From the NCBI GenBank assembly GCA_044892525.1, contig CM097885.1, forward strand, positions 5,954,001 through 6,018,000: a DNA stretch of 64,000 nt, written 5' to 3'. A program made the translations under genes and the position numbers. Source of the stretch: Schmidtea polychroa. Taxonomy: Eukaryota. Of the stretch, positions 14,148-48,879 are shown piece after piece (within the stretch, counting starts at the first letter, position 1; every line of letters begins with the position of its first letter). Below the pieces are notes generated by a model. That model was not told the DNA's origin and ran no database searches. It was given only the letters and a program-made list of their open reading frames with translations.

Positions 14148-14167
14148 TTGAATTTTTTGTCATTTTT

Positions 14168-14389
14168 TTAAATAATCGATTCAAGTTCTTTTATTCTTTC
14201 CTGTAATTGTTTTATTTTATCTAATCTTTTCTCAGCTACTTCTACTGCATTCATGTAAAAATGTCGATACTTTTCATTCTCTACCACCAACTCTTTAATG
14301 TATTCTAATGGTTCTTCTTCTCTTCTTTTTATTCTCTTAAGTTTAACTTCATTCAATTCATTTCTCATTCTTTCAATAAAGTCAATCAT
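14168..14389 (-). CDS. Small coiled-coil protein of Polinton-1
   Basis: 73-aa ATG-initiated, charged heptad-like ORF divergent from the capsid gene. Confidence 0.5.
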   Translation of the reverse strand: MIDFIERMRNELNEVKLKRIKRREEEPLEYIKELVVENEKYRHFYMNAVEVAEKRLDKIKQLQERIKELESII

Positions 14390-14475
14390 TTTTATAAATT
14401 ATTTTTTTATTGAATTCCCTTTTATTTTTATTTTTATTTTTCAACTTTTATTTTTATCAACTTTTATATATAAAA

Positions 14476-15768: not shown

Positions 15769-15797
15769 TATAATCCCTAATATTTTAACATTTTAAA

Positions 15798-17213: not shown

Positions 17214-17224
17214 GTCGACAAGCC

Positions 17225-17989
17225 CTAAAACAAACTTTTCCATATTTCAGCTTCTTCTCTATCCAAATAAATATAATTATATTTTTCTTTCCAATGATTA
17301 TCAACAAACATATCAAACATATTCTTATCAGGTTCAACATTTGAAAATAAATCATTATAAATCATATTCTTATCACGGCGATCTAATTTAAAAAATATAA
17401 AACAATTGGAATTATTTCTTATTGAATTTTTATCTAAAGCATAATATGTTTGAGATATATAAATAACATTACAATTATTATGTCGACCTCGTGTAAAGTA
17501 ACTCTTTTGAATCTCTTGATTTTTCATATTAACAACATCATCAAATATAACTAGATTCCTTTTATCTTTAGGAAGTAAATCACAATGTAAAACATCTTCT
17601 TCACAAATATAATCATTTTTATTACTAATATCTGATTCTAAAATCTTTTCCTTATACCAATCAACCATATCACAAGGTTGAAAAACTTCTTCAGGACACC
17701 TATGTTGATTTTTAAAAATATCAATTATTGCTTTTTTAGTTAATTTATTTTCAAATCCACATTTCAAAAGTTGTAATTCTGGTTGATTTATGGTTGTAGA
17801 ATAAAAGATTAAATTATTATAATCTAAAAAATCATCTTCAAGTAACATTCTCAAAACAAGTACATTCTTTCCACATCCAGAAGAACCAACAATTAATAAT
17901 CTAAAATTATCAGGAAATACTTTATTATTAAATTTACTCTTATGTCTATTTAAAATTGGTTTCCAAATTATTGGACTTCGTACATCCAT
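17225..17989 (-). CDS. A32/FtsK-like packaging ATPase
   Basis: Walker A GSSGCGKN, Walker B LVIFDD, RGRHNN, ISQTY. Confidence 0.92.
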   Translation of the reverse strand: MDVRSPIIWKPILNRHKSKFNNKVFPDNFRLLIVGSSGCGKNVLVLRMLLEDDFLDYNNLIFYSTTINQPELQLLKCGFENKLTKKAIIDIFKNQHRCPEEVFQPCDMVDWYKEKILESDISNKNDYICEEDVLHCDLLPKDKRNLVIFDDVVNMKNQEIQKSYFTRGRHNNCNVIYISQTYYALDKNSIRNNSNCFIFFKLDRRDKNMIYNDLFSNVEPDKNMFDMFVDNHWKEKYNYIYLDREEAEIWKSLF

Positions 17990-18004
17990 TTTGTTTATTA
18001 TAAA

Positions 18005-18598
18005 ATGACAACTGAAGAATCTTTGCAAGAATTAATAAATTCAAATAAAAATAAATCAGTAGTAATTGATGGTAAAAAATATTTTATTGGAAAACATGTA
18101 AAAGAACAAGTTAGAGCGAAGCTCCACGAAGCTAAAGAAGGTGGCATTCTTCCATTAGCTGCTTTAATACCTGCAATCATTGCTGGTTTATCAGGTGCTG
18201 CTGGAATAGCTGGAGGAATTGCAACTACAGTTCAAAAAGCTAAAGAATCTCAAAAGACAGACCTAGAAAAAGAAAAACTACAAACTGAAATCGATTCAAT
18301 GAAGAAGGTAGGGCAAGCTAAAGGGGGAGTGTCCGTTGGAAAGGGTCTCTATCTTAATCCATATGAGGGGAGTCGGCAAAAGTCTCAGGGGACTCTGTCC
18401 AAGGGAAAGGGTCTCTATCTTGATCCTTATAAAGATAGAGGTTTAAATGATTTTTTAAAAAATCAAATTTCTACATCTGAATCTTTATCTTCAAAAGATA
18501 AAGAAGATTTAAAAAAAATATGTAAATCTTTAAAGAATGGATGCCTTTGTAAAACTAAAAATGGTAAAGGATTATACTTGAAGCCCTTCGAACTATGA
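18005..18598 (+). CDS. Virion core / membrane-active precursor protein
   Basis: EGG|ILPLAALIPAIIAGL amphipathic segment and three GKGLYL repeats, typical of adintovirus core proteins. Confidence 0.65.
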   Translation: MTTEESLQELINSNKNKSVVIDGKKYFIGKHVKEQVRAKLHEAKEGGILPLAALIPAIIAGLSGAAGIAGGIATTVQKAKESQKTDLEKEKLQTEIDSMKKVGQAKGGVSVGKGLYLNPYEGSRQKSQGTLSKGKGLYLDPYKDRGLNDFLKNQISTSESLSSKDKEDLKKICKSLKNGCLCKTKNGKGLYLKPFEL

Positions 18599-18620
18599 TA
18601 CCATTTTTGATACCATTAAA

Positions 18621-19502
18621 ATGGTATATGAAGAAAGATTAGCACTTTTAAAAAAATTACAATCAGAACAAGATAAATATAATAAAAAAGATACAACTCA
18701 ACATGCTGAATCTATAATATTAAATGAGGTAATAACACAACAACAGGGGCCAACAATTAAAGCTATAAAAGAGTTGGAAGATTTCAATGAGCAAGCAAAA
18801 TTTAAAGAGTTAGAAGATAAAAAACAAAAAATAAAAGAACTAGAGTGGCAGGATAAAGAAAAAGAATCCAGTGAAAACCATCCTGAAAGAAATCAAAGAA
18901 AACGCAGAAGAATTTCTAATGTGGAAGAAGAAGAAATGTTTTTAAAAACAAAACCTCTTAAAGTTGATCCTAAAATTAGAGATGATTTACCTCCTTCAAT
19001 TAGACCCACATTTAATACTAATACTGAAGGATATCAAATAATAACAATTAATAAACAAAACTTTACTTTATATTCAAATTTAGAAAATAAATCACGTATT
19101 CATTCACAAAATGTTTATAATAATGAATATTTAGACTTTGAATTTACAGATGATTTTTATAGATTACTTTGTGGATATTCTTCAGATGATGTTGAAGAAA
19201 TTAAAAAATATTTAAATTTAATAAAATTAATAAGAGCTAGTTCTAAAGCAAAATATATTCAAGATTTAAAGAATTATTTAAATAAAAATGAAAAGGGTTA
19301 TGTTGTTACAGAGGGAGAGGGATTAATTAGTGAAGGTGGTAAACCAAATCCCATCAATCTTTTTATTGAATTAAGAAAACTATTAGCTGCAAGGAAAGCA
19401 GGACATAATAATTTAGATTCTGATATTTTAAAGATTTCTAAAGATTTGTTAAAACATGGAATTATTTCAAAAGATAAATTTAATAAGTATACGAAGTTAT
19501 AA
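18621..19502 (+). CDS. Conserved adintovirus protein (GasderminX-like)
   Basis: GEG motif followed by LRKLLAARKAGHNN...DLLKHGII C-terminus; located before the protease. Confidence 0.55.
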   Translation: MVYEERLALLKKLQSEQDKYNKKDTTQHAESIILNEVITQQQGPTIKAIKELEDFNEQAKFKELEDKKQKIKELEWQDKEKESSENHPERNQRKRRRISNVEEEEMFLKTKPLKVDPKIRDDLPPSIRPTFNTNTEGYQIITINKQNFTLYSNLENKSRIHSQNVYNNEYLDFEFTDDFYRLLCGYSSDDVEEIKKYLNLIKLIRASSKAKYIQDLKNYLNKNEKGYVVTEGEGLISEGGKPNPINLFIELRKLLAARKAGHNNLDSDILKISKDLLKHGIISKDKFNKYTKL

Positions 19503-19524
19503 ATACGAAGTTTTAAAATACAAA

Positions 19525-19989
19525 ATGACTCCTTCAATATTAGATTTTTTAAAAACATTTGGAATAAAGGCAAAAACAAATTTTGATTTAAAAGATTATG
19601 CAAATTATTTAAATTTAAAAATTAAAATATTAATGAATGATGAATTATCAAGTCTGGAGAGTCCCCTGAATATAATAATCAATTATCAAAATTCAAATGA
19701 AAAAGGATCTCATTGGGTTTGTATATATAAGAAATCTATCTACTTTGATTCTTTTGGGATTAAACCTACTAAAGAAGTTGAAGATTATCTCTTGAGGGGT
19801 TCTCCGATTGATTCCCCAAATGGTTATACTTTTAACTCTTTACAAGTTCAACCTTTGAATACTAAAATATGTGGTATTTTAAGTTTATATGTTTTGTATA
19901 GATTGAATAAGGAAGAGGGAAAGGGGCATACGCAGGATTTTGAATCTATAATTCAAGAAATTTATAATGATCTAGAATCTCTACTATAA
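19525..19989 (+). CDS. Adenain-like cysteine protease
   Basis: GSHWVC, YFDSFG, QVQ...ICG (His/Asp/Gln/Cys). Confidence 0.92.
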   Translation: MTPSILDFLKTFGIKAKTNFDLKDYANYLNLKIKILMNDELSSLESPLNIIINYQNSNEKGSHWVCIYKKSIYFDSFGIKPTKEVEDYLLRGSPIDSPNGYTFNSLQVQPLNTKICGILSLYVLYRLNKEEGKGHTQDFESIIQEIYNDLESLL

Positions 19990-20037
19990 GGATTTTTACT
20001 ATAAGGATTTTTACTATATGAATTTACTACTAAAGAA

Positions 20038-20802
20038 ATGGAGCTTCACAACCCTCCGGAAGATAATTTAAAAAAAATGGTAAACATAATGTCAGATAAA
20101 TATTCAAGAACTTTATCTATAAATTCAAAAGAATCAGACTTTACTATAAACTTTCAAGATTCAATTAAATTAGATCAAAATTTAAATTATGAATTGGGGC
20201 TATTATGGTTTTGTGCTTATAATACTATTTTTAATATAACTAAAGATAATAATAAATTTACTATTCAAACTCGTGAAGGGCATAAACCAGAAATTATAAC
20301 AATAGAACCTGGGGCATATGAGATAAAAGATTTAAATGATATACTTTCTAAAAAAACAAATGAAGGTATTAAAATTAAAATGGATATACCAACTTCAAAA
20401 TGTGTAATGACTTTGAAGAATATAAAAATTAGTTTTTTAGATAATTGTTTCTTTCACACAGTTTTAGGATTTAAACTAATGGATATAACAATAAAAGAAG
20501 ATAAAATAATAACATCAGAACATATTATAAAAATAATAAATACAAACACAATAAATATTCATTGCGATTGTATAACAGGTTCTTATAATAATGGTAAACA
20601 AACAAATGTTTTATATTCCTTTCCCTCAAACACAGTTCCTATGGGATATAAAATAGTTGAAAGAATGAATCCTCCAAATTATTTACCTTTATGTAGAAAA
20701 TATATAATGGATATTAATTTTAAAATTCTTAATCAAGAAGGAGAATTGATTGATTTTAATGGAGAAGAGATTTCAATGTATTTACATTTGAAACAGGTTT
20801 AG
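20038..20802 (+). CDS. Minor capsid protein (penton-like)
   Basis: IEPGAYEI, INIHCDCITGSYNNG, GYKIVE, NQEGELIDFNGEEI. Confidence 0.85.
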   Translation: MELHNPPEDNLKKMVNIMSDKYSRTLSINSKESDFTINFQDSIKLDQNLNYELGLLWFCAYNTIFNITKDNNKFTIQTREGHKPEIITIEPGAYEIKDLNDILSKKTNEGIKIKMDIPTSKCVMTLKNIKISFLDNCFFHTVLGFKLMDITIKEDKIITSEHIIKIINTNTINIHCDCITGSYNNGKQTNVLYSFPSNTVPMGYKIVERMNPPNYLPLCRKYIMDINFKILNQEGELIDFNGEEISMYLHLKQV

Positions 20803-20842
20803 TTCCTCTCAGGGGACTCCGTCCATTTTAAATTATTAATAA

Positions 20843-21829
20843 ATGAGTTCTTATATTCCATGTAATAGAGGTGGTGGAACAATAAAAACAGGGTTTAATA
20901 CAGAAGAAATATTAACTTTAACAGAAAATAAATATATTAATGAAAGAGGTGATTCAATGAAGGGTGATTTAATTTTAAATGGACACAAGATAAAAGAATT
21001 ATCTTTTCCAACTGATGAAGCTGATGCAGTTAATAAGAAATATGTAGATGGTGTTAAAAAATATACTGATTTAACAACAACAAAAATTGATTCAATGGAA
21101 TCAAAGCTTAATAATATCGAACAACGATTTAATGATAAATTTGACAAGTTACAAAGTCTGTTAACTGAACAAGTTGTAAAGTTAAATACTGCTATATTAA
21201 ATTCTAAAGATAAACAAATTATGAATACTAAATTTAATAAAATATATAATATAATAAATGAGATGATTACATCATTTAATAAAAGAATTTCAAATTTAGA
21301 GTCTCATGGAACACACATTAACACCACACATAGTATTAGAAAAAGAGCTGCTGAATTAGAACAGAATAAAACATTATTACCCCATACATATAAACATTTT
21401 ATAGAACCAAGTTTAATAACAACAAACAGTAAAGAATGGGGTGTTTTTATGGTTGTAAAAATTATTGATCCTTATTTCTTTTTGTTTGATGATGATAATG
21501 AAAGAATGAAATGGTTTGTGAAATGTGATTATAATAGTAAGCTTGAAAAGGGTGATGTTATAATGACTAGTTATGATTTACCACACGGAGATTGGTATGT
21601 TAATACTCATTCACATGGACTACATAAAGTTAAAAGTAAGAATATTCATTTTTCTAGTTCACTTGTACAATATATAGATTTAATATTTTATGAAAAAAAG
21701 GTTGATGTTGATGAAGTTCGTAAAGCATTGAGAGAATTGTATAAAGATATCCTCTCAACAAGAGTTTCTTTTGATATCCGAGTATTGGTGCCAGATGGTG
21801 CTCAGAAGAATAAAGTCTTATTTTTTTAA
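20843..21829 (+). CDS. Fiber-like protein
   Basis: GDLILNGHKIKEL..PTDEADAVNKKYVD fibre/neck motif, then coiled coil and a distal globular region. Confidence 0.55.
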   Translation: MSSYIPCNRGGGTIKTGFNTEEILTLTENKYINERGDSMKGDLILNGHKIKELSFPTDEADAVNKKYVDGVKKYTDLTTTKIDSMESKLNNIEQRFNDKFDKLQSLLTEQVVKLNTAILNSKDKQIMNTKFNKIYNIINEMITSFNKRISNLESHGTHINTTHSIRKRAAELEQNKTLLPHTYKHFIEPSLITTNSKEWGVFMVVKIIDPYFFLFDDDNERMKWFVKCDYNSKLEKGDVIMTSYDLPHGDWYVNTHSHGLHKVKSKNIHFSSSLVQYIDLIFYEKKVDVDEVRKALRELYKDILSTRVSFDIRVLVPDGAQKNKVLFF

Positions 21830-21837
21830 TTATTAAA

Positions 21838-22449
21838 ATGGAAGAAGTAAGAGAAGAAAAAATTTACCCAGAATTGAGATCATCAGGATATTATTCCGAA
21901 GGTCACAAAGGTTCCAAGGCCTCGGCTCCCACAGAACTTGAAATTATGAGAGTAAAAGAATTTAAATCCGAAACCTTACATTTACAAGATTTATTAAAGC
22001 ATTATAAAAAAATTAAAAATAGATGGAATAAAGGGAATACAGTTTTAAAAGTTATAGGTTATTCTTTAGGATTTGCATCTGCAATATTAACAGTTATTTT
22101 ACCCATAACTTTACCAGTTGTTACTCTTGCACCTGTAATACTTGGAAGTATTTCTGTGGCTGATGGTTTCTTAACTGAAATAGTTTCATTATCTTATACT
22201 TCTCAAAAGAAAAGTTTATATAGAGAAGTTTGTTTATCAATAGAATTAGGAATCTCTAAATTATTTTTATTTCAATTAAAAGCTTTGGAAGATGGAATCC
22301 TGACAGACGAAGAAATAATGAAATCAAATCAAATAATACAAGATATAAAGAAGGAGGTTATAAGATTAAAAAGGGAGGGCATGGTGGCTAATGTTATAAG
22401 TAATAAAAAAACATCTCGAGAAAAATGGTTAAAGAATTCTTACTTATAA
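21838..22449 (+). CDS. Membrane protein of Polinton-1
   Basis: Hydrophobic hairpin (VIGYSLGFASAILTVILPITLPVVTLAPVILG) flanked by helical regions. Confidence 0.6.
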   Translation: MEEVREEKIYPELRSSGYYSEGHKGSKASAPTELEIMRVKEFKSETLHLQDLLKHYKKIKNRWNKGNTVLKVIGYSLGFASAILTVILPITLPVVTLAPVILGSISVADGFLTEIVSLSYTSQKKSLYREVCLSIELGISKLFLFQLKALEDGILTDEEIMKSNQIIQDIKKEVIRLKREGMVANVISNKKTSREKWLKNSYL

Positions 22450-22543
22450 AATGGGTGTATTTTTAAAAAAGTAGATCAGGTTGCTATAGTTGCTTAAATT
22501 AATTGTCGACATTTTATTATTAAAAAATTAAATATCGTTGGTT

Positions 22544-25500
22544 TCAGTTATGGTTGAAAGCCAACCTATGAATCATTAATTTATGATCTTTAAATTCTTT
22601 ATCACTTAGACCTTTTATATATTCAGGATCAGTATTAAAATATTTAAGTTCTAAACATATAGGATTAAAAACTTGAGAATATAAAGGTTTCTCGATTTCT
22701 CTCTCGGGATAAATAATTTCAACATTATAAATATCAAGATCAGTAATCTTTGTATCATATAACTTATTCAACTTTTCTAGATTTTTTATTATAGGGATTA
22801 AATTATTTCCAATAGGTAGAGTTGTCTTTAAATCACTTAGTATGAATCTCTTATCATCATAATTTGATAATGATACTTTTTGAGATTCTATCAAGTGAAT
22901 ATCATGGTTTTCACTTTTAAGTTGATGTATTTCATCAATTTTATCTTTATGATTTGGATTCAATGTATCTATATAATCTTGATGAGAAAGATTCTTTGCC
23001 ACCACTCTCTGTATTCCTTTACATCTGTTATCCTTTACAGGTTTTTCTTCTTTAGGAAATATAGGATATCTATGTGTAATGGTTTCTTCTGTTTCTGGAG
23101 TTTTAAATATAAATGATCTAGTTATAAATTCAGGGTTTCTAAATGTTTCGTATGAATATTGTTTAGCACGAATAAATATTCCATTTTCTATAGGAGTAAA
23201 AGGTTTTTCATCTTTAAACGAAAATAGTTCTCCAGATGAATTTATTAAATTTGAAAGTATAGGATTTTCTTTCATATCTTTTTGTAAATCATGAGTTCTT
23301 ATTGTTAAAAACATTGAATCTGTATCCATTGCATGCATTGATATATTTGCTCCGTATATAGGTTGTAAGATGTTATAATATGTTTCATACATTTGTAATT
23401 TTGAAAGTTCTAAAATTGTAAACCCTATAAATATTGGTTTGTTATATGTTTTCTCATAATTTTTTAATTCTACTGCAGTAAGATTTTCAGAAAATACTTG
23501 TGCGTTTTTAAATGTAGGCTTTCCTAGCATGCGATTATAACGCTTAATATCTTTGGTAGTATTTGTTAGGAGTTCAATATGAGTATATTTATCAACATTC
23601 TCCATTGTTTTCCCAAAGACTGAATTGTTTAAAATTTTATAATTATTATCTTTAAAAAGATTACCTTCTCTTTTTGCAATGTTTCGGCACCTAATGTTCT
23701 CCTCGATAAAGCTTTCATGAATGGAGCTTGTTTAAATCTTATGACACTATGAACTTTTTTTAATATCATTCCTCGTGAAAGATAAAATTGGAGGAGTCTA
23801 TAGTGACAAAGATAAAACCTTCGATCTGTTTGATCACAAAGAAGTTTCATTGTTGGAGGTTTATCTTGTGAGATTTGCCATTCAGAAAGTTCGTTGATAT
23901 CAATCTTTCTTCTTATGGGAGCTAAAGGAAAATATCTTGTTCCTGATTTTATATCATCTGGATAGTCGAGGTCGCATTCTATAAAGTAACCTATTGGAGA
24001 ATCTTTCGATGTTGAAAGTATTTCTTTCATAAGGTCATCTGTTGGGTTCTCTATTTCAGTGAAATCACCCATTGGTAAAAATTGAGTCATAATTCCTGAA
24101 TATAAAGCTGTTGCATCTATATAAAGTATAAATATAGGATTTTTCATTGTTTCTAATAATTCTTTTAATTCCTCATTGTTAATTTTCATATATGGATCAT
24201 CAGGGTGTTTAGATAGTCTTCGGCTAGTAGTTATTGCATTTCTAGCTTTTATTTCTCTATTCCCCATTACTGAAGAGACTCCTCCTCTAATGTTTGTTTT
24301 AATTTGGTTAAACATATCGAGGTTAGTTAAAAGATCTATAATTTTATCACCTTCTTCTATATTTGAAGTCCAAATGGTATATAACATAGTATCCCAAGCT
24401 AAAGAGGGTGCAGTTATATAATTATAAGGTTTGAGAACAAAAGAGTTTGTAAATTCTTCAAAGCAATCTGCTAGAATATAAACATCTAAGGATAAATACA
24501 TGTTGGTATATTCTCCTAAAGTTTTACACTTGAATAATTCCCACATTTTTAATGCTCGAGAATATTCTTGATCTGTAATCCCTGATTGTAGTAAGTTTGA
24601 AAAGAAATCTTCTTTGTTAGGAAGACTTGTTTCATTATATCTTTCAAACGAGTCAACATAGTCATAAGGATATATTCCTTTTGCTAAACATGTAGGATAT
24701 TCTTCTAGAGGAATATTATTTTTTTCCAAGAATTCTCGAGTGATTTTAAAATTTTCTGGTTTCATTGTTTTTGCTACTGCATCTAAAGACATTTGGAGAA
24801 AGTTTAACGAGTCTATAAATTTTAATTTTCCATATTCAACTGATTTATATTTTTCTTTTGTTAAGCCGATAACTTTGAAAGAGTTTTTAGCATTTGCTGC
24901 TAAATGTTTAATAAATAGATGTATGTCATATCCAAAAAGATTATGAAATATAACAGGTATAAATTTAGGAGTATGGCAATTAAGATTGCAAATTTTATGA
25001 GCTGCTCCTCGATAATTATTTTCCTTTTTTAAATGATCATGATCTATAACTTTTTCATCAGGAAGAATATTCTGTTTACACATCCAACAGTTGGAAGTAT
25101 TTTCATATTCTTGTTGTTGTTGATTAGAAATATTTTGAGGATACTTTGTTTTTAATATTTTAAATATTTCATGTTCTAGATCATTTATATTTTTAGTAAA
25201 ATGATTCAAGACTTCTTCAGAGGTACCTCCTAGAATTGAATATTCTCTAGATTCTATGAGTTCAGGATAATTACTTTTAAATAATAATTTATAAGCAGAT
25301 GGTAATTGTTTAGTTTTTTTAACACTATTAGGTTTATTTCTTTTTCTTAGAAAGGCTTTCATCCTCTCTGGTTTCATCTTCTCTCCTGAGGAGTTCCATA
25401 AATCCATGAGTTTATTTTTTTCTATTATTTTTAAATATTGATAAACCAAATCTTGTTTATGGTTTATAGATTCAAAGTCACCATAAAGAACTCCAACTGT

Positions 25501-26823
25501 TTGTAGTAAATTTGAAAAGTTTTTAAAATACATCTTGGGATTATTAGGCATTTTAATTAAAGCTGGATCATCTTTTTCACAAAATCTTGTATGTTTAATC
25601 ATAGAGTTTTTAGTTGTTGAATAATGAAGACATCTTTTACATGTTCCTCCTCCACTAGTTGGATTCTCTGGTGATGTAAAAGCTTGAAAGTTTTTTATTA
25701 AAACATAATGTTGATTATTTTGTTGTTCCAAGATTAAAAGATATATCTCATTGTCCTGTGCTCCGTTATCCTTGGTTCCACTATCTGAAATATAAATTGG
25801 AATAATTTCTTTCCCTATAACATGCTCATAAATATTAAGTTTAAGATTATTTAATTTTTCAAATTCTGGAATGTCTTCTAGTTTCATTGGGTGTTTGAAT
25901 CCTTTGGGAAATATTAATTCATTTTCATATTGTTTGTATTTTGAAACTCTTTGAGGGTTTGATTCTTGAGGATGTAAATGTGCAAGTATCGACCACATGA
26001 AACATTTGTTATCATTATTTTGTATGTTTATAACATTTTTAGATTTAAAGGGTGTAGGAATATAAGATTTAGGATTAGGTGGTAATCCTCTCCAATAATC
26101 AATCACTAAAGTTTGGAAAGAGTTGAATACTAAGTTTGAATCTCCTAATTCATTTTCAACCTCTTCTTGTTTTGCTTCTACTGCTTGAATTATTTCTTTG
26201 ATGGTTTTATCAAATCCTTTAGTTGAAAATAAATATTTAAAGGGTATTCCAATTTCAACATCTAAAGATGTTGTCTTTTCTTCTGCTCCTCGCCAGTATT
26301 TTGCTTTGATTATAATTTTATATTTTATAACATTATACCTTGTCGGTTTATAATTTTTTAAAGCTTCAGTGAAAGAATTTTTAATATTTTTTTTATTTTT
26401 ATTTATATATTCTCCAGGAGTTATAGGTCCATTGATTTCTAATTGAAATTCATCTACATGATTAAAATCATCCCAGTTATATTTTTCTCTTTCAACATGA
26501 TCAGGTTCTCCTTCTGAATGACATTCCTCATCGTCAGAATTTTGTTTTTTATTTTTACATTCTTTTATATGTTCTAAGTAATAGAAATTTAGTTTTGTTG
26601 AAAAGTTACAATGAGGACATGTAAATATTTCTCTATTTTTCCCGATACAATTTTCAAAATGTTTATTATATCCAGAATATAGAAATCTTCCTTTACATTT
26701 AGGACAAACTTTTGAATTTGTATCATTAAGATTGTTTTCTTTTAATAAATGAGCTTTCGATTTTAAGTGAGAAATTAATCCAGTTTTATTTTTAAAAACT
26801 TTATTACAAATATTACAATTCAT
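22544..26823 (-). CDS. polB: Protein-primed family B DNA polymerase with one frameshift (~23708)
   Basis: N-terminal C2H2 fingers; YGDFES; endonuclease-VII-like C..C..DHDH..YRGAAH..CN; FHNLFGYD; KGIYPY; YIDATALY; K..NNSVFGK (restored frame); MDTDS. Start is 26823 or 26862. Confidence 0.93.
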
Positions 26824-26930
26824 TTTTAGAAAAAAATTTTTTATTGGATACCCTGTTTTCATTTTATTTTTTAAGATTTATATTATTCATTTTTTATAAA
26901 TTAAAAATTAAAAAAATGACAAAAATCCGA

Positions 26931-27013
26931 TCTCCGATAGCGCAGTGGGAATAGACTGGCACAGTGGTTCAAATGGATAGCGGTTCAAATCCTAACTACG
27001 GTTAGTTTTTTTT
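26931..27013 (+). ncRNA. Candidate RNA Pol III small RNA (tRNA-type promoter, non-cloverleaf)
   Basis: A-box TAGCGCAGTGG 26938-26948, B-box GGTTCAAATCC 26982-26992 at tRNA spacing, T8 terminator 27006-27013. Confidence 0.6.
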
Positions 27014-27703
27014 CAACATAAAATAATATTAAAAATTTGAAAATAATATTGAAAATAGTGTGGGTATCTTATATTTATAAAGTACTTGTATATTTTATTT
27101 TATTTTATTTTATTTATTTTATTTATTTTATTTATTTTATTTATTATTTTATTTTTTAAACATAAATATGAAAAAAAAAATATTGAAACGGGTGATGGTG
27201 GCGAACCGGTAATTATCGCCACCTGTCTTTCGAACACCCCCGGATCGATTCTTTAATGTGCATATTTATTTCTCAGTTGTTTTCGGACCTCTTTCGAATT
27301 CACTTTCGAATTCATTTGTACTTTCGAGCAGCACACTTAAAACGCCGATGAAATCGACTTCGTGAGCGAGAAGCGAATAATAAGGTGTGCTGCTATTATC
27401 GGATTGATTCTGATGTATGAGTCTGGCCAGCTTGTATATTGGAAGAGATTCGATAAACGAAAGAGGTTGATAAATAAAAAAAATGATCCGGATCAAAAAA
27501 AACTGTTGAGGGGACAGTGAAAAAAAAAAAAAAATACCACTGTCCCCTCAGAGCAGTTTTACTATTTTTCATTTATTTTTTAATTTATATAATTTAAAAT
27601 CAATAATCTGATAAAGATCAACTCCGGAGTTTCATTGCGATCAGTAGTGTGTATATAGCCCTATCCCAAATAGCCCTCTAACTTTTTCATAATGCCATTT
27701 TCT

Positions 27704-27894
27704 TTTCTATTCTCTTTTTAGTTTGAAGCTTTTGAGTTTGAGGCTTTAAAGATTAAGGGTGGTTGTTGTTTAAAATATGGGGTTAAAATACTATAAAAAC
27801 ATAGGTTTTATGTTGTTTTTCTAATGGTTTAAGCGTAATGGAGGTATGTTTTTGTTGGGAGGGCTGTTTGGGTTGGGTATATATACACACTACT
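27704..27894 (-). repeat. Polinton-1 right TIR
   Basis: Inverted copy of 13941-14147. Confidence 0.9.
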
Positions 27895-29476
27895 CTCAGA
27901 GGTGGCCGATTCATATGATGGAGGATTTTCCATAAATGCTGGGAGATGGCTACAATTCCTACCCAACAAGAAGTATCCCGAATTGGAAGACAGAGAGAAA
28001 TGTTTGTCCCTGTGGTACCGCATTTGTCAATAAAAAATAAATTGTTTTCATTTACTTAGTCTTATAACTCGCCTCGTGTTGGTAAACATGACATTCGTGG
28101 TTTACCGTCTAAACCTGTAAAAGATGAGCTACACACAATCAGAATTAACAGTGAAAGCTGAAACATAGACTTGATTTTTTGAGATATTAAACGTAAATCT
28201 TAGACAAGTTGTGACGTTAGTAGCGCAGATCTAGATCTGTAGACAACTCGACATTTCCGAAAAATAGGGGTACTGAACTCTATAGAACGATTGTAAGCTT
28301 AAAGGTAGTGTCTTCCTCAATCACTGTGAATCCACACATCATTTTCTGTCGACCTAATAACACACTCGTGCTTCACTATTCCCATTGAATTTTAAGTCAC
28401 CTTCAGTGACGGACCCGTGAGGAAGCCCCCACATTACGGCCCGAATCAACTGCGTGATTGAAAAACTCCATGTCCACCGGCTGAGCTCCCGATGGCACCT
28501 CACACCATGACATGGGGTATCTCAACGCCACGTTTCTCAACAAATAAAATTTCATAAAATGGTAGTTACTGAATAAAGTATAAAACTCTGAATGAAATTA
28601 TTTATTAATGTTAACGATATTCAACCATATAAACATCTAAATCTACAAACATTAAAGTTATGGGATCAAATGAAAAGTCATGTGTTACAAAACAAAATTT
28701 TAATTATAAATTAACTTCATGATTATCATTAACTTAAAAGACAAATTCCACATAAAAGTTATCCTTACCACTAATATCGATGTTGAGGCTGAGTCAAAAA
28801 ATCTGTCGGTCGTTTTCTGAAAGCAAATTTGTTTTCGATTTCGAATCCTGGAAATTCCGATGCTACTGATTTTCTTGAGTGATCTATAAGTCGCTGATAA
28901 TGCCTGTAAAGTTTTTGGATTAACTGTAACGGTTTATAGAATTTATCCTACCTGTAAAGTTTTTGGATTAACTATAAGTTTATAATTTTTGTGTTTGCTT
29001 ATATAATAATTTTTAATGTGTGCGGACCAATCAGAATTGAGTACCGCTTAATTTTGTTGCTTTAATTTATTTTTCTTGTTTTTTGGTTTTTTCTTCCTAT
29101 TTTCTTTATTTTTATTATATTTTCTATTTATTTTCCTTAATTTCCTTATTATTTACTGAATTTTACGTTATTTTCCGTCATTCTATTGTCCTATTTTAAT
29201 TTTTCTTATTTTTATATTTTTGTTTTAATTCTTATTTTCTAATTATTGTTTTTCTTATATCTTATTCTATTTTATTCGTAAATTTGTTTATTTTATTTTT
29301 ATTTTCTTCGCACCCTGCTTATTTTACTTTCCTAATTTCCAAAATTAATTTTCCGACTCAGCCCAACAATTATATTTAGTCGACTAAGAAATAAAGTGCT
29401 CTTGAAAAGATTGCAGAACGATCGATAAAATCACTATTAAAAACATCAAGGTACGAGAATATACTGACTGCCTTAA

Positions 29477-29708
29477 CCCTTTCGCCCCTATTGGGACAAT
29501 ACGTCCCAGAAACTTTCATCATGATCCTACTGGGATATTTTCAATGGTCCATAAAAGCCTATTGGGACTTACTTTCCCAGGACTTTCTAGGATATTCAGA
29601 AGCGCCACGATTACAAAAATGAGAATATTTCATAATTAGGTCAATATTAACAAGTTCCAATATATAAATTTAGCATAGTGTCATTAGCGGAAAGTCGGTG
29701 CGAAAGGT
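29477..29708. mobile_element. piggyBac-type MITE
   Basis: TTAA TSD (29473-29476, 29709-29712) and CCCTTTCGC / GCGAAAGGT termini. Excision restores the hAT frame (LTA-LNTII). Confidence 0.85.
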
Positions 29709-30493
29709 TTAAACACCATTATTAATGATATTGAAGAGGGTTTCAATCAATCTTCAAAAGCAGAAGCACAAAATATTCTTGCAAAAGGACGAATTTGAAT
29801 TTCTTATAATCACTGTCTTACGGAACACAATCTTTGAGAATGGATCCTGTGACTCTTAAAGATCTATGAAAGGTCATTGGAAGCCAAAACTAAGATTTTT
29901 TTGCCTAAAATTGAGTACACTAAAAAAAGAAAACGAAACAAAAATAAATTTCCAGGTTAATTTGAATTTTTTGAAGATGATCTTATTTCGAAAGAAACAT
30001 TTAAAAAGGTTTTTATAAAAATTTTGGATACAATTCATTTCAATCTAAAAAAGGTGCTGTGTCGTACTAAGAAGCTCATGATTTGTTTGGATTTTTAATT
30101 GAAATTAATATTCACAACGATGTCTTGAAGATAAAAGTAGATAAACTTATAAAACAATATGATGGGATGTTATAGCAGGAAATCTTACAACTTCACAGTT
30201 TTATAAAAATAATGATCTAAAAACTGAGTTGACATGATTAAAGGAAAAAACATGGAAATTGCATTTCCAAATACTGAAACAATTCTCAGAATTTTCATAT
30301 AAGATAAAGATAAATGGTTAAAGAAATCTCTTTAAAATTAAAACTTGCTAAAAATGATTTAAGATCAACTATGTCTAAAGTGACCAAACGTCCCGATTTT
30401 TCACGATTTAATCCAGTGTCAAAATGAATAAAAAAATATGTCAAGGAATAAAATATTATACAATTTTTTATATTTATAAATTGTACTTATGTT

Positions 30494-31183
30494 AGTAGGG
30501 TATTGTGTGGACCCGGGAACAAAGACATATGACGTCATCGATGACGTCACAAAGAAATATGACGTCATACCCCCGGGGAGGGGGTTTTTTTTTAATTTTT
30601 TTTTTTAATTTTTTTTTTTAATTTTTTTTTTTAAATTTTTTAAAAAAATTTTTTTTTTTTAAACATTTTTTTTTAATTTATATTACGTTGCGGTATTTTA
30701 AAATTTATATTACGTTGCGGTATTTTAAAATTTATTATATTTTAATTATTAAATATATTACGTTGCGGTATTTTAAAAACTTATTGATAAAAGTTTAATA
30801 AAATAAAATTATTATTACACACACACAATATAGTCTACCCGACAAAATATTCTGTTCCCCTATGGTCACACACACACACAATGTATAAAAATATTATTTA
30901 CACACACGCAACAAGTTAGTGTTCTCATTGATATATTAATAATCTATATACTCCGAGTCTATCCGACAAAATATTCTGTTCCCCTATGGTCACACACACA
31001 CAATGTATAAAAATATTATTTACACACACGCAACAAGTTAGTGTTCTCATTGATATATTATTAATCTATATACTCCGAGTTTATCCGACAAAATATTCTG
31101 TCCCTCTATGGGTACTGCTCACAAGGGTACTGGTCACGCTCAACAACTCGCAAGGGTATTAATAAACAATGTAATAAAACATA

Positions 31184-31240
<57 letters not shown>

Positions 31241-31335
31241 ATTTCTATCACAAATCATGGTTAACAAAAAACATAGTCGAATATTATAAAATTAAGGTAT
31301 TGTGTTAGCACACACTCGTTATAATAATTAGCAAT
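30494..31335 (+). repeat. Maverick-2 left TIR (842 bp)
   Basis: Near-identical reverse complement of 60311-61014, plus one extra ~123-bp internal unit. Confidence 0.95.
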
Positions 31336-31348
31336 GTAATAAAACATA

Positions 31349-31415
<67 letters not shown>

Positions 31416-31684
31416 ATTATTATTATTAATATTATTATTATGGGTACTGCTCACAAAGGTCACAAAGGTAAAGGTTACAAATGTAATGCTAAAAATATTC
31501 AAGACATTAACAAAGAAATTATACTTTAAATATACACTAAAATTTATTAACACACTGAGTAAAGGTAACTAACAAAACTTTAACATATTATTATTATTAC
31601 AATGTATAAAAATTGTTCACAAAGTTACTGTTAAAAATAATCAAGATAATAAAATCAATACATTTATTAAATAATTTAAACACA

Positions 31685-34600
31685 TCATCGAAAATAATCA
31701 TGTCCAAAATAATTATCATCTGCTGGATCATGGAAATCATCTGTATCATGGAAATCATCTGTATCATCTGCTGAGATAGCTTCCGTTGAATCTATAAATA
31801 TATCGGTGTCACCGCCCCTATAATGGCCATATGCCAAACTTTGATTTTTATCCACCCAATTTCGTTTATCATCTCTACACGTCAAGGCTCTTTTATTATT
31901 TTTAATACTAAAAAGTTGGTGATTTTTTGACGTTATTCTAAACTGAGGGACTGTGTATATTTTATCATTTAAATAACAATCTAGATACGACTGATGTGTT
32001 AGTCCAGTATCTTTCATACTTATCCCCTTAGCCTTCATACTTTCCTCATCACCCATCAAACTGTAACATTTAGGTCTCAAGAACACCCAATCTTTATATA
32101 ATAACCCTTTATTCTCGTCTTTGAATTTGCCAATGACAGAATCAAGGTTCCTACTATATAAAGGATGATTTGGGTCATAATTCGAAGTATCTAATAATTG
32201 ATCTCTAATCATCGCAGGTAAAAGAATGTCAAGACTACAATGTTTAATTTCCAAGAAGAAGGAATCTGTGTCTCCAGCAACGATATTAATTTCGCAGTTG
32301 AATTCGTCGCGATATTTTTGCAACTCTTCATACTGCAGCTGGTACATCCTGAGTTTGGATAAATCAAGTACGGTTTGACCAATGTAACTAGGTCTATTCA
32401 AACACACTATGTCCTTCCTCAATAAAACCGAAATCAAGTCATCATCGATTTTCGTGGATTTACGAAAAGTCGGTTTCGAACAGAATGTTAATAATCTCTG
32501 TGAAGAATTACACAGACGTAAATTAATACGTTTTTTAAGATTTTCAACAGTCTTGCCGTAAAGACTGTTGTTTAATAATTTATAAAAATTTTTATCGAGT
32601 TTATTTGTCGACGCTGCTCGTAACGCCGTATTTGTGTTAATATAATTTTTGAAAATTTTATCTTGTTTAAATTTAATTGCTCTATGTGTTTTTGATATTT
32701 TAACACCTAATTTAATAAATATTTGTAGAAGCCTCCAATGAAGAACGTAGTTCCTCTTGGGGCTATGTGTAAGCAACAGCTTCTCTATTTTCGAACCCGG
32801 TACACACATCTTTTCAGCGGCAACGGGAAGATCGTCCAGTTTGTCGTGAATTGACGTCGGTATTTCTAAATCCACTTCTATGGTATAACCATAATCAAGC
32901 AGATCTAAATCTACCGTTGTGCATTCAACAATTATATTATTTAATAAATTATCATCAGTAACCCATTCAAAGTCACTGCAAGGTAATGGTTGACTTAAAG
33001 CCCAACCGTATAAATTATTTATATCTATGTAAAGCAAAGCGGTATCCGGGTCTGTTTTTACATAATGTTTGTTTACAAAAGTTAGTCCGCCACGGATACC
33101 GCCCTCGAAAAAGTTATACATCTCCATATCGGTGAGGAGCTCAATTGGAGAGTTTAAAGTTAATAAGGCTGAATTCCAAGACATACCTGGAATCCCTAAG
33201 AAATTTAATGGCTCTAGTCGGTTATGAGCAATGGACTTAGCTCTAAATTGCTGGAAAAAATCGGCTAAAAGGAAAACATCAAGTTTTAAATAAACCATCA
33301 TGTAATCGAAAAGTGAAGTACATGAAGTTTCAACCCAAATTCGCTGAGCTGTCTCATATTCAGCAGGAGTCACATCTTTCCAAATAGGTGGTAACTGATG
33401 AGTGTTATGTAGAACCTCTAATGAAGTTGCGACATCATAAGGAAAAATTCCCTTTGCAGTTATTATTGTACCCTGAAATTCTGATTCGGTCAAGGGTAAA
33501 GATGATAAAGTTTTGACAGCATTATTTAAAGACTCGCTGACAAATTGATAAGAGTCTATAAATTTAACAGTTAATGAGTCAATCCTAGCAAAAAGACTAA
33601 GGAATTTCTCGCTGGTTAAAGGAATACAACTAATATTCCATGAATGATATTTTGAAAGGCCAAATTTCAAGATATGATGCAGATCATAACCCTTTAAATT
33701 ATGAAATACTACAGGAAGGGTATGTCTAATTTGCCTCGACAGATTACAAGTTGTACAAGCGGCACCAAGATATAGACCGGTAAAATGATCATGGTCCCTA
33801 ACTGGACTAACTAAAGGCTTATTACACAAATAACATGATGTGCTGTTTTCAAACATTAATTGTTGCTCATCTGTAATTATCATTTTCTTTTGATAATTTT
33901 TATAATAATAAGGAGTTACAATATATTTCCCTATCATTTCAATTTCAGTAAGAAATTGATCGACACAATCTAAACCGGTGAACGACTTATAAATTTTTAC
34001 GCCTGTGAAATTATTAATAAAAAGCATACCGGCAGAAATAGGCAGATGACGTTGAAAGTAGCGAGTGTCTTTAGGTAAGATAGCCTCAAAGTCAGCGTAA
34101 ATAACAAAGGGAGGAGTAACGGTTTTACTCCAATCAGTAAATTCTAAATATTTATTTTTAGGCAATGTGTACAAGGTAGTACCAAGCTGATTTTTATCGC
34201 AAAGACCCTTATGTCTATTAAAAGCGTCATCATTCCTAAAACCGTTTAAACATCTAGGGCACCACTGACTACAAATCCTAACAGGAGTGATTGAACTATT
34301 CCTACAATTAAGAAATCTATTTAAGTCTGTGATTCCAAGATAATGATAATTATCATTCTTTTCGATTAATAATAAATTGATAGGTATGGCTCCTACTATC
34401 TTACTCCTATATATTATATCAATAAAGGGATGTTTCATAACTGCATCTTCATCGAAAATGTCAATCAAAGCCTTTTCGTTATAAGTAAGAACATTAATAC
34501 TATAACCCGGATTTTGTTGTTCAAATTTACTTATATTTGATAGTTTCATCGGCATATCATTAGGATCAAATTTAATTTCAGAAAGATTGTAGGAATTAGG

Positions 34601-35065
34601 GCGATTTCTATATTGCCTATTTATACAGTCATATTTAATAATTGACAAGAAACTATACAAAAAGCAGAAGTGGTCATTATTAACTACATTAATGAGACAG
34701 CTTAAGTTTCTTAAAGATTTTGGGGTTTCAATAAAACTTCTACCACTTAATCGACTTATTTCAGCAAATTTAGTAAGAACAAAGCTTATGTATTCTATTT
34801 TATTGATAGTCCAATTACTACCTTTCTCATTAATTTTAATTATTTTTTCATTTAAACGAGCAATACCTTCGTCAATGAATGTATCGCTCCAAACTCGGGC
34901 GGAATTCGAGATTACAAAAGATTGTAACTCATCATCTTTTATAAATTCCACCTTTAGACAAAATTGAATTTTACATGATTTTAATTTATTTACATATAAA
35001 TTTAATTTATTTATTAAAATTTCTGGTACAGAGACCGTTTTTAAATCTAAAGACGAAACGTCCAT
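31685..35065 (-). CDS. polB: Protein-primed family B DNA polymerase (intact, 1126 aa)
   Basis: YADFE, endonuclease-VII-like CYLC..DHDH..CN, FHNLKGYD, KGIFPY, YIDINNLYG, KLLNNSLYGK, GDTDS. Confidence 0.96.
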   Translation of the reverse strand: MDVSSLDLKTVSVPEILINKLNLYVNKLKSCKIQFCLKVEFIKDDELQSFVISNSARVWSDTFIDEGIARLNEKIIKINEKGSNWTINKIEYISFVLTKFAEISRLSGRSFIETPKSLRNLSCLINVVNNDHFCFLYSFLSIIKYDCINRQYRNRPNSYNLSEIKFDPNDMPMKLSNISKFEQQNPGYSINVLTYNEKALIDIFDEDAVMKHPFIDIIYRSKIVGAIPINLLLIEKNDNYHYLGITDLNRFLNCRNSSITPVRICSQWCPRCLNGFRNDDAFNRHKGLCDKNQLGTTLYTLPKNKYLEFTDWSKTVTPPFVIYADFEAILPKDTRYFQRHLPISAGMLFINNFTGVKIYKSFTGLDCVDQFLTEIEMIGKYIVTPYYYKNYQKKMIITDEQQLMFENSTSCYLCNKPLVSPVRDHDHFTGLYLGAACTTCNLSRQIRHTLPVVFHNLKGYDLHHILKFGLSKYHSWNISCIPLTSEKFLSLFARIDSLTVKFIDSYQFVSESLNNAVKTLSSLPLTESEFQGTIITAKGIFPYDVATSLEVLHNTHQLPPIWKDVTPAEYETAQRIWVETSCTSLFDYMMVYLKLDVFLLADFFQQFRAKSIAHNRLEPLNFLGIPGMSWNSALLTLNSPIELLTDMEMYNFFEGGIRGGLTFVNKHYVKTDPDTALLYIDINNLYGWALSQPLPCSDFEWVTDDNLLNNIIVECTTVDLDLLDYGYTIEVDLEIPTSIHDKLDDLPVAAEKMCVPGSKIEKLLLTHSPKRNYVLHWRLLQIFIKLGVKISKTHRAIKFKQDKIFKNYINTNTALRAASTNKLDKNFYKLLNNSLYGKTVENLKKRINLRLCNSSQRLLTFCSKPTFRKSTKIDDDLISVLLRKDIVCLNRPSYIGQTVLDLSKLRMYQLQYEELQKYRDEFNCEINIVAGDTDSFFLEIKHCSLDILLPAMIRDQLLDTSNYDPNHPLYSRNLDSVIGKFKDENKGLLYKDWVFLRPKCYSLMGDEESMKAKGISMKDTGLTHQSYLDCYLNDKIYTVPQFRITSKNHQLFSIKNNKRALTCRDDKRNWVDKNQSLAYGHYRGGDTDIFIDSTEAISADDTDDFHDTDDFHDPADDNYFGHDYFR

Positions 35066-35124
35066 TTTTAATATAATATGATTATTATTTAAATCACTGG
35101 TGACATCTACGACACCATAACCTA

Positions 35125-36774
35125 TGTTGGTTACTTAGGGGTGTGTCCTTTTTACAATTTAAAATACGTTAGGGGTAATCATAACCGTTCGACTCTTTCC
35201 TAAGCACCTCCATGACTATTGCAATTTAAACCATTTGTGTACCCATGGCGACGACCATGTTGGCACTGTACACAAAGGTGAAAAAACAATGAGCAGGTGA
35301 GCTCTATTACTAAAACTACTCCCCATTGGATTTTCTTTTCGGGTTCTAGACTGCCGATAGAAGGTCTTACGTCCTTATTCACTATATATGCTATTTTTGG
35401 ATCGTTGTTGGTCCTCAATTACGGGTATTTCTAATTGTTCTCTTATAAAATTTTGTGCAGGGATCCGTCCTTATTTCCCAGCTAGTAATTATTGTTCTAC
35501 ACTTCCTACAATATTTAAATTATCCTTTGAAAAATTTGCGCAGGGATTGGCCCTTATTTTCAAGTTAATCCACACTTGCCATAATATTTAAATTGTCCTT
35601 CAAAGATTTTGAGCAGGGATCTGCCTGTGTTTCTAATCCTGAGCTGTCGGAAAAATTACATAAATCTAACTTTATCCATCTTCAACTGGTCTCAACTATT
35701 CCATCTTTACTCCTAACTCACTTATGTCTATAAAACATAAAGGCGACTAAGCCACCTACATTATCTAAATCTAAATAAAATCCTAAACGACCTAAAATGA
35801 CATTACACTCCCAAATCATTCCTATCACTATCACTGTCCTCTAACTCGATGGACTCAACCGGCGAAATATCTGCCGACCAACAGCACGTAGTGCCGCCCG
35901 TCCACAAACTTTTCCCCAGCCCAGACCATCGACACAATCAACAAATAATATAATTGAATTCAATAAAAACTATGATTTAGAATAAATGAATTTAAACCAT
36001 TAAAAAGGATCACTAAAGAAAATTTAACCGAAACATTAATAGCATATAAAATTTATTAATTAAAATACTCCATAAAAATTACAGAAAACAATAACAAATA
36101 AATTACCACATCCACGTTGGCATAAAATCGAAACTGAGAGTTCTGCAAATTAAGTGGCTATGTTGGAAAAAGTGAGAGTGTTTTTCAATTGAATTTGTGA
36201 TCAGTATTTATACTGATTTTGAATGCGTACTCTATCCAATCAGAGTGCGAGAATTATTGAATTGATTTTGCACACATGCATGAATGTGTGTAATTATTTA
36301 TTTGTTTTAATTTCATAAATTTCTTATTTAATTTTTATTAATTTTAATTTTACAAATTTTATAATTTAACTAATTTGAGTTATATTAATTTTTATTAATT
36401 TAAACATTTTTATTCTTTAAATTTAATAAGTTAAATAACCATTTAATTCTATAAACTTTACAATTTACATAATGCTAATTAATTTTATTATTTTTGACGA
36501 TTTAATCTTTATATTGTTTAAATAATTTTCAACTAATTCCATTTTCTATTTTATTATTTTTCTATTTAAATTTTTAAGTGTTGAATTTTCTGTTAAATTT
36601 ATTTATCTCTTTATTCTATTATACGGGGTTTATTGATTCTTAATGTGTAATGTAGTTTATTTTATTTATTTTAAATTAAACCTTGGTCATAAATTTTTTT
36701 CAACTTTGCGGTTTTTGTGTTAGGTATTTTCGATCGATTAAAACAAACTCTCAGTTCTCGTTTTCAGCCCAACA
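35125..36774 (-). repeat. 3' LTR (1650 bp)
   Basis: Direct repeat of 48880-50536. Confidence 0.96.
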
Positions 36775-37802
36775 AATCACTCCGGGACCCGTTAAAATTG
36801 CGTCCCGCAATTCTGTTAGACATATGAATTTCCCAGGTCATAGTCTATTACATTCCCATTAACCTATAAACATACTATAATAGTTTAAGACATGTTAGAA
36901 TTCAATTAGCAGAAGAAGGTCTAAGCTCAAATTCAAGCAGTTGCCACATACAGTGACTGGTCATAATACACATACATACTGATACAGTGTCCAAACTCAA
37001 GTACGAGTCATATGCAAAAGTTTTATTTCTGGATCAATTCTTCAGTTGGTTGTTTCTTATCTTTTCTGGGTTCGGTTTTCAATCTTTCGGCTGGGTTTTG
37101 TAGGCATGTTTGATTCCTGTTGTTGATTTTCATAATTAGCTCGTAATACTTACTGAAGATCATAGGATTCTCTCTATCGGGGTTTGACTGTTTTCCCATA
37201 TTCTCTTTGGATTTTTAGGTTGGGATTCTGATTTTCTGGATCATTTGATGGTATTGACGGACCTTGCTCCAGGGTTTTCGGAACTTTTGTTCAACTGGGT
37301 GATTTGACACATTGATTTTTCTTTTGGTTTTTCTTGGTGGTTTTGTTTACGGTATTGCTCTTATTAAGGGGTTTTCTTCCTCTAGTGGGTAACTTGAATT
37401 ATTTTCGATTTTGGTCTAAGTTCGCTTGATTTGATTAAGTTTCTAATGTCACTGGGTCTGTGACTTTCGTCTCATTTATCAGGATCTTTTACCGTTCTTT
37501 GTTTAGGGGTTCCAAATTAGGTATTATTTTTAGATATTCGTTTAACTCATTCTTTCTAGGTTTGCATCTTTATCTTTCTTCTGGATTTATATTCTTTCTT
37601 CTCATTTGAGCCTCTGTTCTCCTTTACCATTGTAAGGGTTCAAATTTTGTATTTTTCCCAACTGATTACTTGATCCATTTCTATTTATACATCGATCTTT
37701 TGCCACATTATACATCAATTTATACCTATACATCTAGTACATTTAGTTTGCTATTTATACATCAATTTTTACATATGTTCACTTCCTTTTTACTATTTTC
37801 AT

Positions 37803-48854: not shown

Positions 48855-48872
48855 TTCCCGGCTGAGCCCCCA
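48855..48872 (-). promoter_or_regulatory. Primer-binding site, tRNA-Pro-like
   Basis: Minus strand TGGGGGCTCAGCCGGGAA, 7 nt downstream of the 5' LTR; resembles the tRNA-Pro PBS TGGGGGCTCGTCCGGGAT. Confidence 0.8.
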
Positions 48873-48879
48873 AAAATCA

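Follow-up and report, generated by a model that had tools for sequence, protein, structure and literature searches.

tRNA-derived SINE heads and tDNA/ETC (TFIIIC) insulators keep their A and B boxes after the cloverleaf has been lost; the insulators are characterized by TFIIIC occupancy and barrier activity. Among viruses, the EBERs of EBV are grouped with the VA RNAs of adenoviruses as a comparison. VA RNAs are abundant products of Pol III and bind PKR, Dicer or Exportin 5. The VA RNA genes have intragenic A and B boxes and a T-run terminator, and a tRNA-gene origin has been proposed for them; the RNAs are about 160 nt long and fold into terminal, central and apical stems, with a central GGGU-ACCC pair (PMC7589676, in part). 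MHV68 carries its TMERs as a cluster of tRNA-like Pol III genes, which are transcribed and yield miRNAs (PMC4337559, in part). Among mobile elements, TRIMp3 (Helenus, Ajax, Cassandra) has tRNA- or 5S-derived Pol III promoters in its LTRs (PMC10886601, in part).

Polintons have so far been read almost solely through their proteins. They are piRNA targets in a planarian, according to passages of one source that make no mention of Pol III (PMC8532177, in part). Among the titles and openings of abstracts that our literature search covered, few of them from subscription journals, none describes a Pol III cassette in Polintons.

Here, we analyze a window of 64,000 nucleotides from the AT-rich, 781-Mb genome of Schmidtea polychroa. 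An earlier note had read positions 26931–27013 as a Pol III small-RNA unit inside a Polinton, either a VA-RNA analogue of about 80 nt or a TFIIIC-type insulator. We describe the unit, its copies and paralogues, and a structured segment beside it, and then weigh what they may do.

The carrier Polinton and its Pol III-type unit

The unit forms part of the right terminal inverted repeat of a Polinton-1 copy, whose features are as follows:

13941–27894: Polinton-1 copy with AGTAGT...ACTACT ends and a 6-bp target duplication, CTCAGA, at 13935–13940 and 27895–27900
13941–14147: remnant of the left terminal inverted repeat, without the Pol III-type units and structured segment of other copies
14168–14389, minus strand: 73-aa ORF, found in many other copies between the type C and the A/B unit of the left end
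14476–15768, plus strand: major capsid protein (double jelly roll; PF21738, E 1.3e-26)
23629–26862, minus strand: protein-primed DNA polymerase B (pPolB), main ORF, assigned from Atlas look-alikes
26857–27894, plus strand: right terminal inverted repeat (about 1 kb), containing the type A unit and the structured segment
26931–27013, plus strand: tRNA-sized, probably tRNA-derived Pol III-type unit (type A), outward-facing, with no cloverleaf
26938–26948, plus strand: A-box TAGCGCAGTGG of the type A unit
26957–26974, plus strand: inner A'-box TGGCACAGTGG (26957–26967) and overlapping GGTTCAAAT (26966–26974), subfamily-specific and not conserved
26982–26992, plus strand: B-box GGTTCAAATCC of the type A unit, the same as the B-box of host tRNA-Cys
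27006–27013, plus strand: T8, Pol III terminator-like, at the position expected for a tRNA 3' end

This copy has the hallmarks of a Polinton/Maverick: terminal inverted repeats, the 6-bp target duplication, and an integrase (rve), DJR capsid (PF21738) and A32 packaging ATPase (Pox_A32), all recognized by Pfam, together with a pPolB. The identity of the last comes from Atlas look-alikes alone (top clusters, with PF03175 in 59–67% of members and a score of 0.93–0.95), and searches of Pfam, PDB and PHROGs gave no direct polymerase match. The polB gene is split, its C-terminal part being a second ORF at 22544–23605. The integrase ORF (15798–17213) has an N-terminal phospholipase A2-like domain (PF08398). 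The 73-aa ORF is short and charged and reads outward; a comparable one lies at about 1737–1975 of locus L205.

Most of the left repeat is gone from the window copy, and this loss hides the unit's membership in the repeat from anyone who looks at the window by itself. Its target duplication is intact although its left end lacks any unit, and the loss of units from that end may be later than the insertion.

The signals in the unit stand out from the window. The A-box motif matches only at TAGCGCAGTGG and TGGCACAGTGG (on average 0.22 matches per shuffle, with 2 in just 1 of 100), and the B-box GGTTCAAATCC, which starts 44 nt past the A-box, has its sole exact match here. The B-box alone, with one mismatch allowed, is not above chance in the window (2 found vs a shuffle mean of 3.87), and the joint A..B..T4 pattern occurs once, vs 0 of 200 block-wise dinucleotide shuffles. 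All elements listed in the earlier note are in place: the A-box, the B-box 44 nt on, the T8, and a second A-box overlapping a second GGTTCAAAT. The unit is also close to polB and divergent from it, as had been claimed, starting 69 nt from the first ATG of the polB ORF (26862, minus strand). Pol III-like signals at 26931–27013 are thus confirmed as genuine, and the data support reading them as a Pol III-like unit of type 2 and as part of the Polinton.

The expectation that no canonical tRNA would be found here held: ARAGORN predicted none in the type A unit, and Rfam searches up to E=10 across 20000–40000 gave no relevant match, with neither a tRNA nor a VA RNA for the unit. The unit's predicted fold is no better than chance (z = +0.45; 135 of 200 shuffles equally good), and the CCG(A)TAG/CTACGG pairing that had been proposed to close its ends is not kept across unit types. 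A sigma-70 scan, a model irrelevant to a eukaryote, gave chance-level results.

Neither box has a match in a second Polinton of the window (30624–60906), which shows that not all Polintons carry the cassette. This element has its own inverted repeats, a TBP-like ORF at 57449–57913 (Pfam TBP, E 3.9e-13), and a nested LTR-type element with direct repeats at about 35115–36596 and 48870–50358 and a gag-like ORF at 37803–40085. An array of about 54 overlapping matches with a 13-bp period occupies 41190–42059.

Copies, paralogues and ancestry of the unit

The degenerate A..B pattern of the unit has 3,034 genomic matches and the pattern of type C, a more tRNA-like unit seen in divergent loci, 3,058, with 0 for the reversed control and for the type C control, respectively. 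A DNA search with type A gave at least 44 matches (40 of 2,072 candidates scored). At 29 of 30 loci from this search, the unit lies within Polinton sequence, often by the capsid gene instead of polB, and this places it in a terminal inverted repeat of about 1 kb that is present at both ends; the thirtieth, L022, is a 215-bp repeat fragment with no further Polinton sequence within 1.5 kb. For the A..B pattern, the first 100 matches listed correspond to about 90 sites, of which 81 were fetched in 80 regions, leaving out the window's own site and the last eight. All fall within the first 16 Mb of contig C1, and all 80 regions of this one chromosome stretch have Polinton-1 context. Type C loci were in a Polinton left end in 30 of 30 cases. 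The search outside Polintons that had been suggested therefore led back to Polintons at nearly every sampled locus, and the option that the unit is a dispersed SINE head or tRNA pseudogene fails: other copies of the Polinton carry the unit, and no dispersed SINE appeared among the sampled loci. Rare solo copies may exist elsewhere in the genome, beyond the sampled stretch.

The typical left end runs from the capsid ATG through type D, type C, the short ORF, the A/B unit and the structured segment to the terminus, so that type D lies between type C and the capsid gene, and in most other copies the capsid ATG stands head-to-head with a Pol III-type unit. Three units are present in 29 of 57 young left ends, two in 8 and one in 20; 19 of 24 right ends have one unit and 5 have two. 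Every one of the 151 units found in L061–L140 lies on the strand that also bears the outward-oriented probe. In all 24 right ends, the first A-box is 45–81 bp from the polB ATG; in the young left ends, it is a median of 64 bp (range 45–499) from the capsid ATG, a distance that is looser in divergent subfamilies (30–205 bp in 14 of 15 left ends). Units are deleted or mosaic in many copies. In one Polinton family, the type A unit is a fixed component of the inner terminal inverted repeat and faces outward.

Two of the loci have peculiarities of their own. L159 (2125–2390) represents a subfamily in which the structured segment is followed, within the outer repeat, by a type C unit; this repeat closes with a short inverted pair whose termini are Polinton-like. 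At L132 (8060–8310), several CG-to-TG or CG-to-CA changes relative to its relatives resemble CpG decay.

Nine unit types, collected by a box-based finder, have a mean identity of 0.84 in the A-box and 0.88 in the B-box; the interior (55%), the 5' 7 nt (47%) and the trailer (52%) are variable. The spacing from A to B is always 43–44, and a T-run stands 11–14 nt behind the B-box. Because the types came from a box-based finder, we retested box conservation with the 3' trailer as the anchor, in 29 loci. Of these, 27 have the B core and 20 the A-box, an intact A-box missing in the other 9. Ten of the 29 are out of register; of the 19 scored against the window unit, 18 differ at 0–2 of 21 box positions and at 12–20 of 39 others, and the last, L178, has lost its A-box. 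The copies share ancestry, so these counts represent few independent events. The 30 type C loci, anchored on the A-box, all have a B-box following (27 identical, 3 with one change) and a T-run after it. Between type C and type A, 3 of 23 box positions differ vs 29 of 50 others (p = 0.0003). Type D has a degenerate B-box that ends in TTTT.

The earlier note's call to look for the boxes in other copies is thus answered for the outer A-box, the B-box, their spacing and the T-run, which are kept across paralogues; the inner boxes are not, with A' in 0 of 29 divergent relatives and the B' core in 4 of 29. Nor did folding reveal a conserved structure for type A, B, D, E or F (z −0.5 to +1.0), and that of type C is weakly significant (z −2.36). 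Since the signals are kept while the interior and the fold are lost, constraint would act on the promoter and terminator, not on the RNA, and the comparison argues that the unit is under constraint as a Pol III signal.

Type C points to the source of the family. It scores 32.4 bits against the Rfam tRNA model (cut-off 29) with broken acceptor and anticodon stems, and 25 of 28 positions through the anticodon, including 15 of 17 outside the A-box, are identical to host tRNA-Cys. Type A can be placed in register with tRNA-Cys with one D-loop insertion, matching at 38 of 72 positions, mostly in the boxes. Three host tRNAs were compared, and for most types Cys and Lys are not told apart by local alignment scores; the descent of type A from tRNA-Cys is thus inferred through its paralogy with type C. 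Altogether, the paralogues are likely derived from tRNA-Cys. A separate origin of the 3' end from a tRNA-Arg or tRNA-Lys arm was dropped, the matches being just short ones.

Host tRNA genes are in long tandem arrays (L231–L236, L031–L053, L054–L060), with periods of about 281 bp for Cys (1,001 pattern matches), about 424 bp for Lys and about 278 bp for Arg. Within 60 nt downstream, host tRNA-Cys genes have just T4 runs (5 of 5). At L191 (2457–2515), within about 1 kb of a divergent unit, is a hairpin resembling mir-753, a planarian family (57.5 bits, below the cut-off of 62).

The structured segment downstream of the unit

Beyond the type A unit, the right repeat contains a second candidate:

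27190–27569, plus strand: structured segment, candidate second Pol III gene, 180 nt downstream of the type A unit
27199–27209, plus strand: A-box-like TGGCGAACCGG, identical in 111 of 128 distinct copies
27242–27252, plus strand: B-box-like GGATCGATTCT, 43 nt after the A-box-like motif
27327–27394, plus strand: branched stem-loop (z −3.96), its closing helix rewritten between subfamilies with pairing kept
27397–27455, plus strand: long G-U-rich hairpin of pre-miRNA size (z −5.24), strongly conserved in sequence
27499–27560, plus strand: terminal hairpin with an A-rich loop (z −9.45), then T4/T5

The segment has 2,805 genomic matches. Its box-like motifs have the same geometry as those of the units, with a spacing of 43–44 in 117 of the 121 copies that have both. 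The predicted fold of 27180–27570 reaches −134.6 kcal/mol (z −8.8), which none of 100 shuffles equalled; the minus strand also folds (z −6.2). In a set of 14 hand-picked diverse copies, from which the structure itself was derived, pairing is kept in 96.2% of cells, and both partners have changed in 14 of 51 pairs, including 7 of 11 in the closing helix of the branched stem-loop. This covariation exceeds all 500 shuffles and all slid controls, a comparison that overstates the case because most changes separate two subfamilies and the structure comes from the same sequences. Rfam gave nothing relevant for the segment, and a comparison by eye found none of the hammerhead, HDV, twister or pistol ribozyme cores in the branched stem-loop.

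The length of the predicted RNA depends on where transcription would stop: about 90 nt if at the T4 at 27280–27283, about 375 nt if at the T4/T5 at 27557–27569. In 93 of 128 copies, a T4 is first reached near +90; in 116 of 128, a T5 first comes beyond +320 or is absent. Because host tRNA-Cys genes end in T4 runs, the earlier T4 may stop the polymerase before the main hairpins. Avoidance of T-runs within the segment is not significant against shuffles (P 0.10–0.75) and therefore gives no support for Pol III read-through. A pre-miRNA-like hairpin would share a transcript with the segment's promoter, as the pre-miRNA hairpins of TMERs do with their tRNA-like part, if the T4 near +90 is read through; in the unit, which ends in T8, it would not. 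We regard 27190–27569 as the best candidate for a functional Polinton RNA.

Contigs from sequencing runs, whose RNA origin is a guess, cover both the unit and the structured segment (X1, X2, X3, X5, X7, X8, X9 and X10). Summed contig depth is nearly flat in X10, while in X1 and X2 the segment far exceeds the outer repeat, a difference that we do not count as evidence because contig depth cannot rank parts. Contigs of organism B match the unit with 9 other letters (X5) and 27277–27483 with 0–18 other letters per piece (X7); thus, there are relatives that carry a different organism label. From 27630 to 27900, the organism B runs give next to no coverage, which is not read as a finding. Exact searches found neither a unit motif nor a hairpin motif in metagenome contigs, nor the segment's 5' motif in viral contigs.

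Possible roles and comparison with described systems

In type-2 promoters, TFIIIB is placed about 30 bp upstream by TFIIIC, which binds the A and B boxes. This virus-like transposon, present in thousands of copies, likely recruits Pol III for its own use, and since the signals alone are conserved, we favour a role in cis, in which the unit would bring TFIIIC, TFIIIB and Pol III to the ends of the element; we hold this as an evenly balanced proposition. TFIIIC is predicted to sit on the unit boxes and TFIIIB between the unit and the polB or capsid ATG 45–81 bp away. By analogy with other type-2 promoters, Pol III would make an unstructured RNA of about 75 nt and stop at the T-run, and, next to the inward-reading genes and the structured segment, the ends would stay accessible and protected from silencing. 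The short RNA would be mostly a by-product, with the structured neighbour as the candidate functional RNA. Of the earlier note's two suggestions, the TFIIIC-type insulator survives insofar as a cis reading best fits the pattern of conservation; because the A-box and terminator persist, however, a transcribed unit is a better match than an insulator made of a B-box alone. Persistence of the terminator would also suit a trans-acting RNA. Also counting against the cis reading are the 9 of 29 trailer-anchored loci that lack an intact A-box, the degenerate B-box of type D, the left end of the window copy, devoid of units beside an intact target duplication, the isolated fragment L022, the absence of boxes from the second Polinton and the looser distance to the capsid ATG in divergent subfamilies.

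It is rather unlikely that the RNA of about 75 nt is itself the product, as a tRNA-like decoy or a source of tRNA-fragment-like RNA that would titrate host RNA-binding or small-RNA defence proteins. This VA-like or TMER-like reading, in which the paralogues diversify as in an arms race, sits well with a complete promoter and terminator, the exact tRNA register and the existence of nine types, and up to three units per end, with over 3,000 copies each of A/B and C, would give high output. Furthermore, a single tRNA-like molecule rescues TMER-null MHV68 (PMC4337559, in part), and piRNAs target Polintons in a planarian (PMC8532177, in part). However, the window unit has no fold (z +0.45) and its types share no interior sequence, and VA RNAs need three structural domains (PMC7589676, in part).

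That the units are passengers we consider improbable. A tRNA-Cys gene or tRNA-SINE head would have been captured once, duplicated in tandem and spread by repeat copying while decaying, but neutral decay spares no boxes, and the bias between types C and A, seen equally in the trailer-anchored copies, runs the other way. Spacing and T-run position have also been kept despite about 45% interior divergence. The features that suit passengers are the clear tRNA-Cys ancestry of type C, the varying number of units per end (1 to 3) with deletions and mosaics in many copies, and the lack of units in the window's left end and in the second Polinton; other terminal repeats hold tRNA-like pieces for which a functional RNA product is unlikely (PMC10886601, in part).

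A role in replication or packaging, with terminus-directed Pol III transcription opening an origin and the hairpins folding in displaced single-stranded DNA, is highly improbable: all units face the terminus within the repeat at both ends and the structured segment has a strong fold on either strand (z −8.8 and −6.2), but transcription would end 880 nt before the terminus, the G-U pairs conserved in the long hairpin speak for an RNA of the plus strand, and protein-primed replication needs no RNA primer.

The cis reading resembles what is seen in SINE heads and ETC insulators, where the boxes outlast the cloverleaf, and a barrier or chromatin-opening role is possible for the unit as well. The unit family has the A and B boxes of a tRNA-derived SINE head and, like it, lacks a functional-tRNA cloverleaf (type C passes the Rfam cut-off with broken stems). 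Unlike SINEs, the unit was not found dispersed on its own among the sampled loci and has no body or tail, and unlike bare ETC sites, it keeps an A-box and a terminator. TRIMp3 offers a second likeness, a Pol III promoter in the terminal repeats of a mobile element that is kept as a promoter and not as a functional RNA; those elements are non-autonomous LTR retrotransposons that need their own RNA copy (PMC10886601, in part). The carrier here is instead a DNA element, with inverted repeats and Polinton genes in place of two direct LTRs with a PBS and PPT, and its units face outward and terminate at once.

Like adenovirus VA RNAI and VA RNAII, the unit has A and B boxes, a terminator (T8, within the T≥4 of VA genes), tandem genes and a virus-like carrier with pPolB (PMC7589676, in part). 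Unlike them, it is about 75–80 nt long, unstructured and located in terminal repeats, it has no Rfam VA match, and the central GGGU-ACCC is absent from 26931–27013. Of the claim of a Pol III small-RNA unit, the type-2 signals and the membership in the Polinton thus stand, and the VA-RNA analogue does not: the unit fails as a VA RNA because it has no folded structure, stable or conserved, and it is about half the length of one, with an interior freely replaced between subfamilies. The structured segment is a better candidate analogue of VA RNAs and TMERs than the type A unit. It comes closer to VA RNA in behaviour, not in sequence; a GGGU/ACCC pair closes its 5' stem and is not a central domain.

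A constrained Pol III cassette in terminal repeats would add a non-coding regulatory layer to Polintons, as in adenoviruses and gammaherpesviruses. With more than 3,000 matches for each of two unit types and 2,805 segments, these would rank among the most numerous TFIIIC/Pol III sites of the genome, and such numbers of predicted sites would affect chromatin. The series from a near-tRNA-Cys copy through box-only units to a structured extension illustrates a possible tRNA origin of such genes. More tentatively, and on balance doubtful, the ends may run a full Pol III programme, tRNA-Cys-derived units plus a structured RNA of about 375 nt with a pre-miRNA-like hairpin, produced by thousands of copies, that blunts host RNAi/piRNA defence. 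If true, no earlier VA/TMER-like small-RNA system would be known from an endogenous Polinton, and the family would preserve living intermediates between a captured tRNA gene and a viral non-coding RNA. The likeness to the TMERs of MHV68, drawn here from sequence alone, is that of a tRNA-like cluster, with one to three units and a structured segment per end (PMC4337559, in part). The units differ from TMERs in ending at a T-run with no hairpin behind and in having lost the cloverleaf; the structured segment would match them more closely, with a tRNA-type promoter joined to downstream hairpins, one of them the size of a pre-miRNA.
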